A DNA stretch of 64,000 nt from Escherichia virus TH41. Each line of letters opens with the position of its first letter. The stretch's first letter is position 1. Where the stretch lies: the sequence record MT446412.1. One strand, written 5' to 3'. The notes below the pieces were generated by a model. The model was not told where the DNA came from. It saw nothing but the letters and a program-made list of their open reading frames with translations, and searched no databases. Of the stretch, positions 21,457 through 27,656 are shown piece by piece. Both the position numbers and the translations under genes were made by a program.

Positions 21457-21790
21457 TATCGATTTATCTGATTTAGATAATTTCGAGAAAGATGCGGAGG
21501 GAGCTAAGGCTCCTTCTGTACCTTACTACGAAAAAAGTTTGGAGATTATCCGGCAATCCATGGGAACCGTACGACAGGAAATTCTGTTATCACTCCCTGA
21601 TGGGTCCAGTCACATTGTGTACGTAACCGGAATTAAAATTGAACCATCTGGAAAAGTTTCAGTTGATTTCGGCACCCCTTCTGAAGACCGCAAAGCGGAG
21701 CTTGCAGTGCATGTAGAAAAGTGTGTTACAATGCAAATACAAGATGAAATTGATAAGATTAAAATGAAAAAGAGGTGGTGGAAGTGGTAG
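21449..21790 (+). CDS. Hypothetical protein (113 aa), syntenic with T4 gene 40
   Basis: Between uvsX and gene 41; basic/hydrophobic C-terminus KKRWWKW; no sequence-level recognition. Confidence 0.4.
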   Translation: MNDIDLSDLDNFEKDAEGAKAPSVPYYEKSLEIIRQSMGTVRQEILLSLPDGSSHIVYVTGIKIEPSGKVSVDFGTPSEDRKAELAVHVEKCVTMQIQDEIDKIKMKKRWWKW

Positions 21791-23214
21791 AAACTATTTT
21801 ATCCCAGCTACTCTTTAACAAGGAATATTTTGTTAAAGTCTGGCCATATCTGAATAACACATATTTTGAAAAGGGTCCAGCAAAGACCCTTTTTAATACG
21901 ATTAACGAACACGTAAAAGAATATCAAGCGGTACCAACTAAGACTGCACTTGATATCGCGCTCGACAGTTCTGACCTTTCTGAAGTCGAATATGAAGGCA
22001 CAAAGAAACTCTTAGGAGTCCTGGCCGATACTCCAGAAGACCAGGAATGGTTGGTTAAAGAAACCGAGAAGTATGTACAGAAGTCTGCGATGTTCAATGC
22101 CACATCCAGGATTATCGAAATCCAGAGCAATGCCGAACTTCCGAAAGATAAACGTGATAAACGAATCCCGGATATTGGTGCTATCCCTGACATCATGCGC
22201 GATGCATTGTCTATCTGTTTTGACTCTGCTCTGGGCCATGACTGGTTAAACGATTACGAAGCTCGATTCCAGACTTATCTGAACAAATCGAAGAAGGTTC
22301 CGTTCCGTATTAACATCCTGAATAAAATCACGAAGGGCGGGGTTGAGTACGGTACAGAGAACGTTTTACTGGCCGGGACGAACGTCGGCAAATCCCTTGG
22401 ACTTTGTTCGCTGGCGGCTGACTATCTTCAGACTGGTCATAATGTGCTTTATATAAGCATGGAAATGGCTGAAGAAGTATGTGCCAAACGTATTGATGCC
22501 AACTTGCTGGATGTGTCTCTGGATGATATTGATGAAGGTCATGTGTCATGGGCGGAATACAAAAGTAAGATGGAAAAATGGCGTGCAGCCGGGACCCTTG
22601 GGACTCTGAAGATAAAACAATATCCAACTGGCGGTGCTCATGCGGATACCTTCCGTGCATTGCTGAATGAATACAAACTGAAGCAAGGGTTTGTGCCGGA
22701 TGTGATTATTGTTGACTACCTGGCAATCTGTGCAAGCTCAAGACTGAAAACGTTTACCGAAAACAGTTACGGCCTGATTAAGATGGTTGCAGAAGAACTT
22801 CGTGGTCTGGCGGTCGAGAAAAATGTGGTCCTGTGGACTGCAGCGCAGACAACCAGGGGTGCGAACGTTGCAGCTGAGATTGATATGGCTGACATCGCTG
22901 AATCTTTTGGTATTGCTCACACGGCCGACTTTATGTTGGGTGTTGTTGAGACCGAAGAATTCGCTCAAATGGGACTACAGTTAATCAAACAGCTTAAGTC
23001 TCGTTACGGCGATAAGAACTACTATAATAAATTCAAGATGGGTGTTAAGAAAGGTAATCAGCGCTGGTACGAGGTTGATGATGATTCAGCTCCTAAACAA
23101 GGCCCTACGGTTAAAGAAGCCACTGGTGAGATGAATCGCCAGGCTGAAATGAATAGACAAACCAGGGTCAACAGGAGCGACCTGGACGACCTTGCTGCTC
23201 AAATGAAATTCTAA
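21784..23214 (+). CDS. 41: Replicative DNA helicase gp41 (DnaB-like)
   Basis: GTG start giving MVETILSQLLF (T4: MVEIILSHLIF); Walker A GTNVGKSLG; near-identical blocks to T4 gp41. Confidence 0.93.
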   Translation: MVETILSQLLFNKEYFVKVWPYLNNTYFEKGPAKTLFNTINEHVKEYQAVPTKTALDIALDSSDLSEVEYEGTKKLLGVLADTPEDQEWLVKETEKYVQKSAMFNATSRIIEIQSNAELPKDKRDKRIPDIGAIPDIMRDALSICFDSALGHDWLNDYEARFQTYLNKSKKVPFRINILNKITKGGVEYGTENVLLAGTNVGKSLGLCSLAADYLQTGHNVLYISMEMAEEVCAKRIDANLLDVSLDDIDEGHVSWAEYKSKMEKWRAAGTLGTLKIKQYPTGGAHADTFRALLNEYKLKQGFVPDVIIVDYLAICASSRLKTFTENSYGLIKMVAEELRGLAVEKNVVLWTAAQTTRGANVAAEIDMADIAESFGIAHTADFMLGVVETEEFAQMGLQLIKQLKSRYGDKNYYNKFKMGVKKGNQRWYEVDDDSAPKQGPTVKEATGEMNRQAEMNRQTRVNRSDLDDLAAQMKF

Positions 23215-23233
23215 AGACCTTCGGGTCTTTTTC
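23213..23233 (+). terminator. Rho-independent terminator (AAGACC-TTCG-GGTCTT + T-run)
   Basis: UUCG hairpin followed by TTTTTC directly after gp41 stop. Confidence 0.7.
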
Positions 23234-23241
23234 ATTTAGAG

Positions 23242-23274
23242 GTTTACAACACCATAAAAAGGGTGTACTATTAT
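23242..23274 (+). promoter_or_regulatory. Degenerate early promoter (GTTTAC ... TATTAT) with conserved leader
   Basis: Spacer about 21 nt (long); followed by TATCCCATCAACTACTGATGAGGATAATAAA-ATG 23303. Confidence 0.35.
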
Positions 23275-23302
23275 CCCATCAACTACTGATGAGGATAATA
23301 AA

Positions 23303-23551
23303 ATGTTATTAGTTAATGTGCAGTACCAGTTCAAATCTGAAGAAGCTCTCCAAAAGTATGCTGATATTTGTGAGCATAATAAAAGAACAGCTGCCATTGT
23401 TGGTCTGAAGCCTTTTAAAATTTTGGATTGCTCCTTGAACAGAGCAAGACGCTGGTGTAGTGTTGCCTGTCATGCTTCAGTTGAAGGGAATGATTATTTT
23501 TTCATTACTTTCAATGCACAAGATTTTCATTTAATTAATGAATTAAAATAG
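23303..23551 (+). CDS. Hypothetical protein (82 aa)
   Basis: ATG after conserved leader with GAGGA. Confidence 0.55.
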   Translation: MLLVNVQYQFKSEEALQKYADICEHNKRTAAIVGLKPFKILDCSLNRARRWCSVACHASVEGNDYFFITFNAQDFHLINELK

Positions 23552-23580
23552 TGTACAAGCCCCTTGTCTTAGGACATAAT
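23551..23580 (+). promoter_or_regulatory. Early promoter GTGTAC-N18-CATAAT (PeSL-like)
   Basis: Followed by conserved GATTCCATACTGAGTTACAC block; ATG 23630. Confidence 0.6.
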
Positions 23581-23629
23581 GATTCCATACTGAGTTACAC
23601 AATAAACCAACTGTTAAAAGGAAAACCAT

Positions 23630-23932
23630 ATGTTTAATCAAACCGATATGAACCGTTACTATTTTGGTCAGTTCGCTCGCCGTGATGAAAACTGTGCTGC
23701 TCTTATCGCATCAGGCATTCAAACTGGTAAATTAATAAAGCTCAAAAGCGATGTTCAACCTTCATCTGTTCGCAGCTCTCTTCGTGAGTATCTGCTTGCA
23801 GGCGGGGCAGTATATGTTATCGCTGAACCTTTTGTTAACGTGTGCGACGATTACACAATTAGTGTGACTGTTATGCACCCAACTACTGGGAAAATTCGTT
23901 GTCTGACTATGCACAACTATGAGTTGGCGTAA
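23630..23932 (+). CDS. Hypothetical protein (100 aa)
   Basis: ORF track. Confidence 0.55.
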   Translation: MFNQTDMNRYYFGQFARRDENCAALIASGIQTGKLIKLKSDVQPSSVRSSLREYLLAGGAVYVIAEPFVNVCDDYTISVTVMHPTTGKIRCLTMHNYELA

Positions 23933-23937
23933 GTGAA

Positions 23938-23961
23938 TAAAGGGGCTTACAGCCCCTTTTT
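23938..23961 (+). terminator. Rho-independent terminator (GGGGC-TTACA-GCCCC + T5) overlapping the next -35
   Basis: Stem plus TTTTT; loop CTTACA doubles as -35 of promoter 23946-23974. Confidence 0.65.
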
Positions 23962-23974
23962 CTTATGTTATAAT
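23946..23974 (+). promoter_or_regulatory. Early promoter CTTACA-N17-TATAAT
   Basis: TATAAT 23969-23974; leader CTATCAACTACTGGAGAATAAA then ATG 24001. Confidence 0.55.
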
Positions 23975-24000
23975 GACTCTATCAACTACTGGAGAATAAA

Positions 24001-24318
24001 ATGAAAACCATTGATTGCAAGGCAGAATACAAAGTTTATTATCATGGGTCAAGTTCTAATGCTGGAATCCAAAATATGCTTTGTCCTCCTGATGCAACTG
24101 GTGTTCTGTCAGAAGTTGGGCGTAAGAAAAATTTAGGGCGTGTGTTTTTTACTGAAGATATTGGTTTGGCGCGTATCTATGCAGGAAGAGCAGCTCGCTC
24201 ATATGGAGGAGAACCCCGTCTTTATCGTGTGATTGCACCTGTTGACGTGGTTTGTTTAAATGATACTAAAGGCGCAACAGTTTATCACGCTGACTGGGCC
24301 TTCTGTGAGGAAATCTAA
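24001..24318 (+). CDS. Hypothetical protein (105 aa); possible minimal ADP-ribosyltransferase-like fold
   Basis: Motif order YHGS ... FFTED ... LYRVIAP recalls small H-Y-E class ARTs; unverified. Confidence 0.55.
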   Translation: MKTIDCKAEYKVYYHGSSSNAGIQNMLCPPDATGVLSEVGRKKNLGRVFFTEDIGLARIYAGRAARSYGGEPRLYRVIAPVDVVCLNDTKGATVYHADWAFCEEI

Positions 24319-24522
24319 ATGTATAAATTAGAGAACGTAGTATTTATTGGTTGGTTTGAAAATGGTAATATGTTTACCAAAGAAACCGCGCTGGATGTCA
24401 GTGACAAAAATATGATTGAATGGGTTACAGTGCAGTATGCGGAAGTGAATAATGCGCTGGTTAAAGCCTTTGTTAATGACAATAAAGTTTTTGAATATGA
24501 TGCCCGCATTGAGGAAATCTAA
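24319..24522 (+). CDS. Hypothetical protein (67 aa), paralog of next ORF
   Basis: Shares segment WVTVQYAEVNNALVKAFVND with 24523..24864 (WYVQKTADNYNALVEAFVDG). Confidence 0.5.
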   Translation: MYKLENVVFIGWFENGNMFTKETALDVSDKNMIEWVTVQYAEVNNALVKAFVNDNKVFEYDARIEEI

Positions 24523-24864
24523 ATGACTTTTAATCCAGAAGACCGCGTAAAAGTAACAATCAAAGTGAGTGCCGTTGGCGTTCCATCTTTTGAGCGCTCA
24601 AGTATGTTCCATCCCGCAGGTATTCACTGGTATGTTCAGAAGACTGCTGATAACTATAATGCGCTTGTTGAAGCTTTTGTTGATGGCGAGCTAATCCATA
24701 AAGTAGACATGCGTAAGGGCACTGCATTGCGTAATCTTATCTTGACCGTTGAAGCTCAACTGGTAAATGAAGAAATCTGCCTTACTGATATTGAAGCAGC
24801 TCTTCATATTGCACGTGCTGAATATTACAAATTGACTGGTTTTTCAGTTGAAGGTGAAAAATAA
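24523..24864 (+). CDS. Hypothetical protein (113 aa), paralog of previous ORF
   Basis: ORF track; shared N-terminal block with 24319..24522. Confidence 0.5.
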   Translation: MTFNPEDRVKVTIKVSAVGVPSFERSSMFHPAGIHWYVQKTADNYNALVEAFVDGELIHKVDMRKGTALRNLILTVEAQLVNEEICLTDIEAALHIARAEYYKLTGFSVEGEK

Positions 24865-24894
24865 GTGTACATCAAAGGGGTAATGCAGTATATT
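24865..24894 (+). promoter_or_regulatory. Early promoter GTGTAC-N18-TATATT
   Basis: Leader ATCCCTATCAACTACTGAGGAGATTGAA then ATG 24923. Confidence 0.55.
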
Positions 24895-24922
24895 ATCCCT
24901 ATCAACTACTGAGGAGATTGAA

Positions 24923-25216
24923 ATGAAAAAGTTATTAATCGCAGCAATTCTTACCGTAGCATCATGTGGTACAGCCCCAGTTACTGCTGGGCTTGATAAA
25001 GACCTTTGTGAGTGGTCCATGACTGCGGACCAGACTGATGTTGAACACCAGATTTATGCTGACATCATGAACATTACTAAACGTGACCACCCAGATATGG
25101 TTAAAGAAGTATCTGACCAACTGGCTTCTGGTGACGTTATGCAGTATAACTATGTTCTGTATTGCGATGCTTCATTTGACAACAGCAAGATTGTTCAATG
25201 GGTTACAGGTGAATAA
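24923..25216 (+). CDS. Putative lipoprotein (97 aa)
   Basis: Signal peptide MKKLLIAAILTVASC with lipobox VASC. Confidence 0.55.
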   Translation: MKKLLIAAILTVASCGTAPVTAGLDKDLCEWSMTADQTDVEHQIYADIMNITKRDHPDMVKEVSDQLASGDVMQYNYVLYCDASFDNSKIVQWVTGE

Positions 25217-25217
25217 A

Positions 25218-25658
25218 ATGATTAACAGAAATTTAGTTATCAAAAAACTTCGTTGTAAAAATCAAAATGCACAAGCATACAGGATGTTTTGGAGCGACGA
25301 ACCCATTCAATACCTGGGTTATTTTCTTGTTGATAGTGATAATAGAATTACGTTTGCTCATAAACTTCTTAACAAAGAATTAAACCATTGGCAAGAACTT
25401 ATTGCGGTCAAGTCTAAATTATTTTCGCGCAATACAATGCACCAATTGGTTTATTTTTTCGCTGACGGTATTCCTGACAAGGTTGAGTTTGATGGGTTTG
25501 AATTTAAAGACATCACCCCTGATAATGAATTGAATGACAGTATTGTTAATATGGGTATCCCGGGTAAGTACATCAAAAACAGTCTTTTGAAACTTCTGGA
25601 AACCCCTGTATATTCAGTTGACGACCAGATTTTTAATGCCTTCATGAAGCGAGATTAG
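25218..25658 (+). CDS. Hypothetical protein (146 aa)
   Basis: ATG preceded by GGTGA; C-terminus DDQIFNAFMKRD shared with next ORF. Confidence 0.5.
   Translation: MINRNLVIKKLRCKNQNAQAYRMFWSDEPIQYLGYFLVDSDNRITFAHKLLNKELNHWQELIAVKSKLFSRNTMHQLVYFFADGIPDKVEFDGFEFKDITPDNELNDSIVNMGIPGKYIKNSLLKLLETPVYSVDDQIFNAFMKRD
25618..25653 (+). repeat. 36-bp direct repeat, copy 1 (TTGACGACCAGATTTTTAATGCCTTCATGAAGCGAG)
   Basis: 35/36 identical to 25979-26014; 3' end of gene 25218..25658. Confidence 0.85.
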
Positions 25659-25659
25659 T

Positions 25660-26019
25660 ATGAGTTATTATAATTTTCTGAATTTTGAACTGGCGAGCAA
25701 TAATGATGGTAATGCTCATTATGAATTTCGTGAGCCACGGTTTAATCAAGCGATTGGTTATATTATCGTCAAAGATGATGTTATCATAAAGGCTCGCTCA
25801 TTTATGGTAATGAATGGACCTTATGAAGATACTCGCGGCTATCCATTTGATAAAAAGAATGTGCGCGATTGTGCAGCATGGATAACCGGAAACCCCGAAA
25901 TTGGGGTCATGATATCTACTGAAGCGAATGACATTCTGGAAGGGGTTTGGGCCAAAGCTCAAGAATCGTCTATTGCTATTGACGACCAGATTTTTAATGC
26001 CTTCATGAAACGAGGTTAA
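25660..26019 (+). CDS. Hypothetical protein (119 aa) flanked by 36-bp direct repeats
   Basis: ORF track; C-terminus DDQIFNAFMKRG. Confidence 0.5.
   Translation: MSYYNFLNFELASNNDGNAHYEFREPRFNQAIGYIIVKDDVIIKARSFMVMNGPYEDTRGYPFDKKNVRDCAAWITGNPEIGVMISTEANDILEGVWAKAQESSIAIDDQIFNAFMKRG
25979..26014 (+). repeat. 36-bp direct repeat, copy 2
   Basis: 35/36 identical to 25618-25653. Confidence 0.85.
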
Positions 26020-26020
26020 T

Positions 26021-26242
26021 ATGTTTGTTTTAACTCAATTTTCTAAAGCAACATATAGCTACTCTTGTCAATGGGAAGTCTTCATTGATACACCGTCTCC
26101 CAAGTATGGAGTTTTCGGACGAGTAACTACACAAGCTTATGTTGCGCGACCAACCAAACGTCAGATTCGTAAGCTTAAAAAGGCGCATCGCCAACTGATT
26201 AAAAGAAGGGAACAATATGAGTGCAATGTGTACGGGCTCTAA
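26021..26242 (+). CDS. Hypothetical basic protein (73 aa)
   Basis: ORF track. Confidence 0.45.
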   Translation: MFVLTQFSKATYSYSCQWEVFIDTPSPKYGVFGRVTTQAYVARPTKRQIRKLKKAHRQLIKRREQYECNVYGL

Positions 26243-26627: not shown

Positions 26628-27656
26628 ATGTCATATATTGATAAAGAATTTGCGGTTAGAGCTTTATCGTATCAACCACGTTATAGAGAAGTCACCGGGA
26701 GCACATTTAAAGCAAACTGTCGTTGCAAGGTTTGTGGGGACTCCCAGAAAGATTCACACAAGGCTCGATTCTGGGCGTATACTAATCCGGCTGATGGCGC
26801 GGTTTACGTGAAATGTTTTAACTGTGACTACTCCACGCATATAAGCAAATACATAAAAGAGTTTGAGCCGGATTTACACTGGGAATATATGGTTGAGAAG
26901 TATAAGGAGAATGCCTTTGGCAGACAACGTAATGAAGTTGCCGAAACTCCGAAAGAACCAGAAAAAACTCCGGTTATCGAAGAGCTTGCTTTTTGTGAAA
27001 GACTCGATACTTTACCAGAAGCGCATCCTATAATTAAGTATGTAAAAAGTCGGTGTATTCCTAGCAATGTTTGGAACCGGTTATGGTTTACAAACAAATG
27101 GCCTGCATTAGTTAACTCCGTTAATCCTGGGACGTATAAGAATGAAACGAATGAACCACGCTTGGTTATTCCTATCTTCAACGGCAAAAAAGAAATCGAA
27201 TCTTTCCAAGGACGAGCTCTTCGCAAAGATGCACCACAAAAATATATCACAATCAAAGCTCACCCAGAAGCTTCCAAAGTCTATGGTGTAGACAAGATTG
27301 ATGAGCGCAAGCGCGTGTGGGTAATGGAAGGTCCGATTGATAGTTTGTTTATCCCTAACAGCATTGCGATAACTGGTGGAACATTGTCATTGGAAGCCGT
27401 TCCTTATCCAGAAACCAGAGTATGGGTAATGGACAACGAACCAAGACATCCGGATACGATTAAACGTATGAAGAAGCTCGTTGAAGCTGGCGAAGCTGTT
27501 ATGTTCTGGGACAATGCACCATGGCATACGAAAGACATAAATGAGATGGTTAAATCAGAAGGAGCAACCCCTGAACAAATCGAATCATATATGGCTGATA
27601 ACGTTGCCCAAGGATTGATGGCGAGAATGCGACTTTCGAAGTACGCAAAAGTTTAG
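26628..27656 (+). CDS. 61: DNA primase gp61
   Basis: 342 aa (same as T4 gp61); N-terminal zinc ribbon CRCKVCGD...CFNCDY. Confidence 0.9.
   Translation: MSYIDKEFAVRALSYQPRYREVTGSTFKANCRCKVCGDSQKDSHKARFWAYTNPADGAVYVKCFNCDYSTHISKYIKEFEPDLHWEYMVEKYKENAFGRQRNEVAETPKEPEKTPVIEELAFCERLDTLPEAHPIIKYVKSRCIPSNVWNRLWFTNKWPALVNSVNPGTYKNETNEPRLVIPIFNGKKEIESFQGRALRKDAPQKYITIKAHPEASKVYGVDKIDERKRVWVMEGPIDSLFIPNSIAITGGTLSLEAVPYPETRVWVMDNEPRHPDTIKRMKKLVEAGEAVMFWDNAPWHTKDINEMVKSEGATPEQIESYMADNVAQGLMARMRLSKYAKV

Follow-up and report, generated by a model that had tools for sequence, protein, structure and literature searches.

A repeated stop/start junction beside dmd in a Gaprivervirus as a probable short-homology boundary of translationally coupled anti-defence genes

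In phage T4, the interval between genes 41 and 61 holds dmd (61.5), tifA (61.4), sp (61.3) and adfA (61.2), and has been named the 'anti-TA island', for toxin-antitoxin (PMC9391042). Dmd (discriminator of mRNA degradation) of T4 is a phage antitoxin which inhibits the HEPN RNases RnlA/LsoA (PMC8266594; PMC9391042). Two kinds of rearrangement are closest to the case described here. Cassettes of T4-type phages are bounded by promoter-early stem-loop (PeSL) motifs (Arbiol et al. 2010, PMC2839356; Comeau et al. 2014, PMC4122927); these motifs, Shine-Dalgarno (SD) sequence and ATG included, mediate cassette shuffling via mini-circles, the crossovers lying between the SD and the -10 box (PMC2839356). 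The dmd-tifA locus of T4 is amplified in tandem by recombination at microhomologies of 6-10 bp (Srikant, Guegler & Laub 2022, PMC9391042). Here we analysed a stretch of 64,000 nucleotides (nt) from Escherichia virus TH41 (MT446412.1), called the window below, in which the stop/start boundaries at both ends of dmd carry the same 16-nt string. This junction (J; copies J1 and J2) is probably a portable translational-coupling junction which doubles as short homology for the gain, loss, swap and doubling of gene cassettes.

The window belongs to a T4-like phage of the genus Gaprivervirus. Across positions 23550-25250 it is 99.5% identical to UPEC01 (an Escherichia phage) and 96-98% identical to TH44, PSD2001, phage 212 and VR20. 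The locus is the interval bounded by gene 41 (replicative helicase, 21775-23214) and gene 61 (primase, 26628-27656). An earlier reading made from the letters alone (the sequence-only reading) had pointed to an identical 16-bp string here, and the 16-mer TGAGGAAATCTAAATG was indeed found on the + strand at 24306-24321 and 24510-24525; the translations of the two upstream open reading frames (ORFs; 24001-24318 and 24319-24522) both end in EEI, as it had said. Read in frame, each copy gives T GAG GAA ATC TAA ATG, with E-E-I as the last codons of the upstream protein, so that a GAGG SD is followed by an 8-nt spacer holding the TAA stop and then by the ATG. That the ATG overlaps the stop was a misreading, as TAA (24316-24318 and 24520-24522) directly adjoins it. 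An SD within the 3' end of the upstream ORF and a stop adjoining the downstream start make up the anatomy of a coupling junction, which J1 and J2 both have. Among relatives the conserved unit is the 15-mer GAGGAAATCTAAATG, preceded by T, A or C; the codons before it differ (GCCCGCATT, TGGCGTAAA, CACTTATCT, and TTCTGT at J1), which marks the 15-mer as a discrete unit. J1 is conserved in Gaprivervirus, Dhakavirus, Mizar and the Kanagawavirus CIP9.

No third copy of the 16-mer was found in the window with up to 2 mismatches allowed, and 0.16 copies with ≤2 mismatches are expected from shuffles. The sequence-only reading had asked whether the string is simply frequent across the genome as SD and start context. 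In the UPEC01 genome (169,801 bp) the 16-mer is not frequent: it occurs exactly twice, both times beside dmd, and never with 1 mismatch, and the four sites with 2 mismatches are all ordinary leader ribosome-binding sites. The window has 41 tight stop/start junctions (820 pairs), and the 16 nt up to and including the ATG were also compared among them. Pair identity has its mode at 7/16 and reaches 16/16 for J1 and J2, the next highest value being 13/16. The context of SD, stop and start alone therefore does not yield an identity of 16/16.

The gene that follows J2 varies among relatives, being ORF113 in the window, UPEC01 and VR20, a 46-residue Zn-ribbon ORF (ORF46) in most Dhakaviruses, and the tifA/61.4-like ORF79 in DK-13. 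We searched phages with a chimeric query made of the 3' end of ORF105, J and the 5' end of ORF46. It matched Enterobacter phage CIP9 (Kanagawavirus) in one piece: the order is ORF105, GAGGAAATCTAAATG, ORF46, dmd being absent from the locus, and the junction reads AEWAFCEEI, stop, ATG-EEFECVVCGC. The zinc-ribbon ORF joined to the ORF105 homologue via J in CIP9 (39 residues, MEEFECVVCGCS…; locus L152, 2082-2200) is unannotated. For most Dhakaviruses the match was split into two pieces with 195 or 204 nt between them; this corresponds to the order ORF105, J, dmd, J, ORF46, in which dmd is one or the other of two alleles. The pieces were 399 nt apart in three records (fDHCT2, 04086 and ABTNLsp5). 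fDHCT2 and 04086 carry dmd-B, J and dmd-A in tandem (1588-1986 in L151 and L153), with three copies of J and both genes intact, each ending in DARIEEI; dmd-B has 64 residues, dmd-A 67, and the two are about 53% identical. ABTNLsp5 probably has the same tandem, to judge from its 582-nt span alone. The dmd-A of fDHCT2 matches the single dmd of IME281 at 202/204 positions. In 04086, the first dmd copy and ORF105 lack annotation.

Across these phages, n dmd genes go with n+1 copies of J: n is 0 in CIP9, 1 in the window and the Dhakaviruses with a single dmd, and 2 in fDHCT2 and 04086. Direct repeats at the ends of the unit and one copy at the joint, the pattern of tandem formation or deletion by short homology, are thus found here and also at a second repeat described below. 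In related phages, cassettes with J as their exact edge are found once or twice, are missing or have been exchanged, which bears out the repeated short-homology junctions suspected in the sequence-only reading; from such comparative patterns we infer that the underlying process was recombination at J. A literature search found no description of natural dmd tandems, J or ORF113, but was incomplete, and its part on tandem or paralogous dmd was swamped by papers on Duchenne muscular dystrophy.

The two dmd alleles show how sharp the edges are. Alleles A and B share 57% nucleotide and 53% protein identity and differ in the spacing between the J pieces (204 or 195 nt). Between L006 (JS98-type, allele A) and L148 (allele B), identity is 96% over the 500 nt upstream and 16/16 at J1, falls to 57% in the dmd body directly past the ATG, returns to 93% over the last 27 nt of dmd plus J2, and is 94% over the 500 nt downstream. 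The same identity profile was obtained for the window against L148 and L034. The conserved dmd tail with J2 is 93% conserved between alleles whose bodies are 55-58% identical.

The 3' ends of dmd were compared over about 25 distinct dmd loci. In T4, T6, RB5 and ST0, the protein ends in D[CWF]RG and CGAGGATAAtATG leads into tifA/61.4. Gapriverviruses, Dhakaviruses and Mizar have a four-residue extension, xEEI, written GAGGAAATCTAA and followed directly by ATG. Where no gene follows directly (SP18; L141/L142), the end is NEK or FR and GAGG is absent. Since it is present in the xEEI and T4 types and absent in SP18 and L141/L142, the GAGG tail, by this comparison, goes with a coupled downstream gene. 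The dmd tail of VR20 differs again (YDYHIHLSEEI). Relative to the window, SP18 lacks ORF113 (exactly 342 bp) and has no J2. Two simple joints were tried. The SP18 dmd end (YRSNEK, stop, GTGTACA) was read as a deletion joint of the tails of dmd and ORF113 (the latter GEK, stop, GTGTACA), by comparing L002 2440-2480 with window positions 24495-24525 and 24835-24880; the suffix GAAAAATAAGTGTACA fits, and the preceding 12 nt match neither parent. A crossover of J1 with a T4-type end, CGAGGATAA, was discarded as a one-step origin of J2, the GAGGA lying in another codon phase with no in-frame stop.

The repeats of 36 and 40 bp noted in the sequence-only reading proved to be one 45-nt repeat (25618-25662 and 25979-26023), the copies being 93% identical. 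It codes for a protein tail, DDQIFNAFMKR[DG], with its stop, and then for the ATG that opens the next gene. Two copies flank ORF119 in six Gapriverviruses. Seven Dhakavirus loci have no ORF119 and one hybrid copy, with the left flank of copy 1 and the right flank of copy 2. Such a hybrid is the product that would be expected of recombination between two copies, or of the reverse event, and the independent presence and absence of ORF119 makes this the second case of a short-homology junction in the region. Three proteins that otherwise differ end in this tail, namely ORF146, ORF119 and AdfA/61.2 of T6, and the Pfam AdfA family matches the last 19 residues alone. The 45-nt repeat may serve as a linker for recombination, or else its product may be a functional peptide common to these proteins.

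The gene between J1 and J2 matches Pfam PF17587 with 74.1 bits (cut-off 27; E = 1.1e-20; profile positions 3-59 of 60) and PHROG 2102 with E = 1.1e-33. Its 67 residues are within the 60-70 residues of the Dmd family, as is its placement between gene 41 and sp/61. By homology it is a bona fide member of the Dmd family, and inhibition of RnlA/LsoA is predicted. The sequence-only reading had taken the next ORF, ORF113, as a paralogue of this gene from a shared block, NALVKAFV/NALVEAFV. The block is 87% identical over 30 nt (24449-24478 and 24656-24685), and the protein alignment it had proposed gave 29% identity with E = 2e-5 for a single comparison. In hhalign, Dmd and ORF113 align with a probability of 89.6% (E = 1.9e-6) over columns 31-66 only, which cover the helix and the last strands. 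Among all ORFs of at least 35 residues in 150 loci and the window, a Dmd hidden Markov model matches solely the Dmd and ORF113 families, with E values of 9e-6 to 0.011 for ORF113 relatives. ORF113 itself falls below the Pfam Dmd threshold (12.5 bits against 27; E = 0.19), matches the PHROG Dmd family with E = 3.3e-4, and gives a weak phmmer match to 5i8j in the PDB (E = 0.83). Of 12 invariant Dmd positions in the C-terminal half, about six are identical and two conservative in the hhalign register; read in that register, the changes at invariant residues are Q39K, N44Y, D54G and E59K.

An AlphaFold model of ORF113, built from an alignment of seven sequences that included no Dmd, has a predicted local distance difference test score (pLDDT) of 80.9 overall and 88-93 over residues 10-60, and forms a beta-beta-alpha-beta-beta fold followed by two C-terminal helices. 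The top Foldseek matches of this model in the PDB are 5i8j_A, 5hy3_B and 5i8j_B (E = 2.5e-4 to 4.2e-4, probability 1.00), and superposition on these Dmd crystal structures gives a target template-modelling score of 0.85-0.92 and a root-mean-square deviation of 0.9-1.7 Å; a caveat is that 5I8J and 5HY3 are older than AlphaFold2 training. The next match is about 500-fold weaker (E = 0.12). Alignment, profile and model together support the paralogy, with the 24319-24522 gene being Dmd and the N-terminal domain of ORF113 having a predicted Dmd fold.

The C-terminal 47 residues of ORF113 are homologous to a stand-alone 50-residue ORF in Dhakavirus ESCO10 (L011 1989-2141) and also end two metagenomic proteins of 99 and 174 residues with unrelated N-termini, and so appear to be a mobile two-helix module. 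The ESCO10 ORF carries the wrong label 'cef modifier of suppressor tRNAs'. Members of the ORF113 family are rare, with about 14 phage records and 2 clusters among 5.8 billion proteins; a single-sequence search of that set returned 1 cluster, and a profile search added just VR7/VR25 and C-domain-only proteins, so that the alignment available for modelling was shallow. IMG/VR scans for ORF113 and Dmd relatives gave few loci, and an annotated phage collection was used instead. Homology and modelling make ORF113 a diverged Dmd-fold paralogue fused to a separate helical module. As it fails the Pfam threshold and Dmd-invariant residues are changed, we term it a Dmd-fold paralogue and not a Dmd orthologue. 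It is plausibly an antitoxin mimic with altered target specificity.

Taken together, these data can be explained as follows. The GAGG in the last codons (E-E-I), with TAA and ATG behind it, would couple translation of the next gene, and J would thereby join promoter-less small genes inside one early operon (ORF105-dmd-ORF113); both the anatomy and the correlation with a downstream gene point to this coupling role. At successive boundaries J would supply 15-27 bp of direct-repeat homology. Recombination between J copies, within a genome or between co-infecting relatives, would add, delete, swap or double cassettes, and all products would be in frame and expressible. The window would then show the system in one of its states, with J1, allele A of dmd, J2 and ORF113 in succession, where ORF113 is a third and far more diverged Dmd-fold copy. 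We infer crossovers at J from the n/n+1 series, the hybrid 45-nt repeat and the sharp mosaic boundaries, and the microhomology arrays of T4 (6-10 bp; PMC9391042) and the mini-circles of PeSL cassettes (PMC2839356) make them plausible.

Several points weigh against this account. Crossovers at the junction are proposed from comparisons, none having been directly observed. With flanks 94-96% identical, later allele swaps could have used ordinary homologous recombination anywhere there, and J could then merely mark where the heterology originally ended. Which way the events ran is ambiguous, as CIP9 could represent either a deletion or an ancestral empty site. J2 drifts, reading GAGGAAACAAAATGA in VR7, TAAaATG in Mizar and ATTTAA in DK-13. 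The SP18 dmd 3' end (TATCGTTCTAAC…) is no simple join of window sequences, and a simple crossover of the T4-type end into J would be out of frame. Finally, J is functionally constrained (SD, stop, start), and TGAGGAAAT, a part of it, is the phage's usual early-gene SD, with 17 copies of GAGGAAAT in the UPEC01 genome; part of the identity of J therefore needs no recombination.

This last point is the basis of an explanation by functional convergence, in which selection independently fixed the best coupling signal at two adjacent junctions and J has no role in rearrangement. The commonness of that SD, with near-matches at leaders, fits it, as does a GAGG tail that is present just when a coupled gene follows. 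So does a scan of viral contigs, in which the 15-mer was present in at least 120 unrelated contigs of all kinds, a figure that says nothing about its frequency; among the matches listed, L034 and L028 each have two copies flanking dmd. However, the window's 39 other tight junctions do not converge in this way, and T4-type phages couple dmd to the next gene by a different string. Convergence also leaves unexplained the series of 0, 1 and 2 dmd genes with n+1 copies of J, the single hybrid 45-nt copy, and the 12 further bases before J2, rich in synonymous sites, which are conserved between alleles of 57% identity. We consider it an improbable explanation of the whole.

About as improbable, to our mind, is that the pair was left by a single tandem duplication in situ, of a segment that began at J1 and stopped close to the dmd end, with J2 as a scar kept by its SD/stop/start function. 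In that case the EEI end of the first dmd would stem from the duplication, and ORF113 would descend from a second dmd that came to lie after a duplicated J. In its favour, ORF113 lies directly past J2, has the full Dmd fold in its model and ends its domain of residues 1-66 in VDMRKG, like the ancestral type of end seen in T4 Dmd (VDCRG). The dmd tail xEEI copies the ORF105 tail CEEI, every J2-bearing phage among the dmd loci compared also has ORF105 with J1, and the repeat period of 204 nt equals the length of dmd. Yet J2 mostly precedes unrelated genes (the Zn-ribbon ORF46, tifA-like genes) and not a Dmd paralogue, the ORF113 family is as rare as described, and CIP9 has J right before ORF46. 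The paralogues are 29% identical while J is identical at all 16 positions, and the dmd-B/dmd-A tandems and allele swaps need more than one duplication. A single in-situ duplication may nevertheless have been one step in the history. Convergence and duplication each explain part of the data, and neither explains the cassette series. Chance repetition, for which only the shortness of the string and the A+T richness of the genome could speak, is rejected with near certainty by the shuffles, the 820 junction pairs and the UPEC01 search, and by a pair that holds the same register at consecutive stop/start boundaries and is conserved in many genera.

The portable-junction account can be taken a step further, though only tentatively, and we think the extension rather doubtful as a whole: J might be a dedicated cassette boundary, with neither promoter nor integrase, for integron-like anti-toxin arrays that T-even-like phages build and reshuffle by their own short-homology recombination, and ORF113 and the tandem dmd genes might be antitoxin mimics of differing function, by which a phage could counter more of the RnlA/LsoA-type (or other HEPN) toxins. 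The contents of such arrays, equally tentative, would be 0, 1 or 2 dmd alleles, ORF113, tifA-like genes and ORF46. The gene 41-61 island of T-even phages contains proven anti-defence genes, dmd acting against RnlA/LsoA, tifA against ToxN and adfA against DarT. If J works as proposed, portable in-frame junctions would explain quick turnover of counter-defence genes without dead chimeras, and the PeSL idea would extend from promoter-bearing to promoter-less, translationally coupled units. Candidates for study are the natural tandem dmd alleles, ORF113, which may neutralise other toxins, and ORF105, whose co-translation with dmd is predicted. Gapriverviruses and Dhakaviruses are common candidates for phage therapy, and the island cassettes may help to predict host range on toxin-antitoxin strains.

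The gene map of the locus is given in Table 1. We take ORF105, dmd and ORF113 to be one early operon, on the grounds of the PeSL-type promoter/terminator-like composites before and behind them. Early promoter/leader motifs (…TATAAT-like… ATCAACTACTGAGGAG…ATG) are repeated at 23939-24000, 24865-24925, 23213-23300 and 23552-23629, and two of the four have a stem-loop terminator upstream, a PeSL architecture that delimits the small operons of the island.

Table 1. Coordinates of the features at the gene 41-61 locus of the window (PeSL, promoter-early stem-loop)
Feature	Position	Strand	Remarks
goF-like ORF	23303-23551	+	
ORF100	23630-23932	+	
PeSL-like composite before operon	23939-24000	+	terminator stem-loop 23939-23959 overlapping early-type promoter CTTACA-17-TATAAT 23946-23974, leader ATCAACTACTGGAGAATAAA, ORF105 ATG
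ORF105, phrog_2110	24001-24318	+	ends FCEEI
Junction copy 1 (J1)	24306-24321	+	GAGG, stop of ORF105, ATG of dmd
dmd, allele 'A'	24319-24522	+	67 residues, ends DARIEEI; Pfam PF17587, PHROG 2102, annotation in relatives
30-nt block in dmd	24449-24478	+	codes NNALVKAFVN of Dmd helix; repeat comparison
Conserved dmd tail (GATGCCCGCATT) + J2	24496-24525	+	J2 alone 24510-24525, stop of dmd and ATG of ORF113
ORF113, phrog_23762	24523-24864	+	
ORF113 N-terminal domain	24523-24720	+	residues 1-66, Dmd-fold (predicted)
30-nt block in ORF113	24656-24685	+	codes YNALVEAFVD; repeat comparison
ORF113 C-terminal domain	24721-24864	+	residues 67-113, two-helix module (predicted), ends EGEK
PeSL-like early promoter + leader	24865-24925	+	TGTACA-17-TATATT ... 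ATCAACTACTGAGGAGATTGAAATG; closes operon, starts sp
sp (spackle)	24923-25216	+	
ORF146	25218-25658	+	
45-nt tail/junction repeat, copy 1	25618-25662	+	…DDQIFNAFMKRD, stop, tATG; ORF146 end / ORF119 start
ORF119, phrog_4122	25660-26019	+	AdfA-like C-terminal tail; between 45-nt repeat copies
45-nt tail/junction repeat, copy 2	25979-26023	+	…DDQIFNAFMKRG, stop, tATG; ORF119 end / DUF7279 gene start
DUF7279 gene	26021-26242	+	73 residues

The last codons of ORF105 supply the ribosome-binding site of dmd. ORF105 is strongly conserved among T4-like phages from a wide range of hosts, with 115 clusters at ≥52% identity, and in it H15-G16 is invariant and S17 conserved in the consensus. Searches of ORF105 by sequence, against Pfam and against the PDB gave no match. 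Its AlphaFold model has a pLDDT of 84.6, and the best PDB fold matches all belong to the ADP-ribosyltransferase superfamily: KptA/Tpt1 (E = 0.015) and Arr (E = 0.019), both with a probability of 0.99, RES, ParT and PARP, none of them reaching E ≤ 0.001. This superfamily has an NAD pocket of the H-x-S / Y / E type, and no glutamate of ORF105 could be assigned as catalytic. From its model ORF105 looks like a miniature ADP-ribosyltransferase-fold protein; its translational coupling to dmd is predicted. In UPEC01 it is mislabelled 'clamp loaded subunit DNA polymerase'.

ORF146 starts at GTG 25083, inside sp, in the mechanical ORF list (25083-25658); its likely start is ATG 25218, directly past the sp stop (GGTGAATAAAATG), the start that the SP18, DK-13 and VR7 annotations give, and the UPEC01 annotation has the longer, overlapping version. 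The DUF7279 ORF contains RPTKRQIRKLKK, similar to the basic RPTKRQIRQ-KR-FRK core of TifA/61.4 homologues (T6, RB5, DK-13), and its counterpart in VR7 carries the annotation 61.4-like. By this similarity, it may be a candidate tifA-type gene of this phage.

How J compares with the systems outlined at the start can now be set out. Like a PeSL, J is a short conserved regulatory string at gene boundaries of a hyperplastic region, includes the SD and the ATG, and has copies flanking ORFs that are inserted, deleted or replaced among close relatives; recombination between PeSL copies has been proposed and partly demonstrated. The operon described here is itself delimited by PeSL-like motifs (23939-24000 and 24865-24925). 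Unlike a PeSL, J has no promoter at 24306-24321 or 24510-24525, the + strand promoter-like sites being at 23243, 23552, 23946 and 24866, and no stem-loop terminator at its junctions, the terminator-like stem-loops being at 23213 and 23939. It is intra-operon, 15-27 bp long, overlaps the coding end (EEI) and carries the stop of the upstream gene. Its cassettes, unlike those of PeSLs, are promoter-less and reliant on predicted translational coupling. J therefore acts like a PeSL and is not one.

The tandem amplification of T4 dmd-tifA shares with J the same locus and gene, tandem repeats with a single short homology between units, and the setting of the 'anti-TA island' (dmd, tifA/61.4, adfA/61.2). 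The T4 events, however, were laboratory-arisen, used arbitrary microhomologies that varied by replicate and amplified identical copies, whereas J is one fixed functional junction across genera, with single-gene units and tandems of diverged alleles (dmd-B and dmd-A) or a Dmd-fold fusion. Within the Dmd family (T4 gp61.5; PF17587; PDB 5HY3, LsoA-Dmd; 5I8J, RB69 Dmd), the N-terminal domain of ORF113 shares the fold, the NALV-AFV helix motif and the D-x-R end, and ORF113 is set apart by its helical C-terminal domain of 47 residues, the changed invariant residues and a sub-threshold Pfam score.

In lambdoid phages, linkers are short conserved gene-boundary sequences proposed to focus homologous recombination between unrelated modules; such boundary or 'linker' sequences between modules were reportedly treated by Clark et al. 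2001 on HK620. Compared with J, they belong to another phage group and sit at functional-module boundaries rather than between single small anti-defence genes. As an analogy only, integron gene-cassette arrays also combine promoter-less single-gene cassettes, a repeated short site, an upstream promoter and a variable array length. J has neither an integrase nor attC, unlike integrons, and exchange would use the general or short-homology recombination of the phage. The system described here is thus of a known kind, the modular shuffling and genome plasticity of T4-type phages, to which it adds a promoter-less variant of the junction and a Dmd-fold fusion protein.

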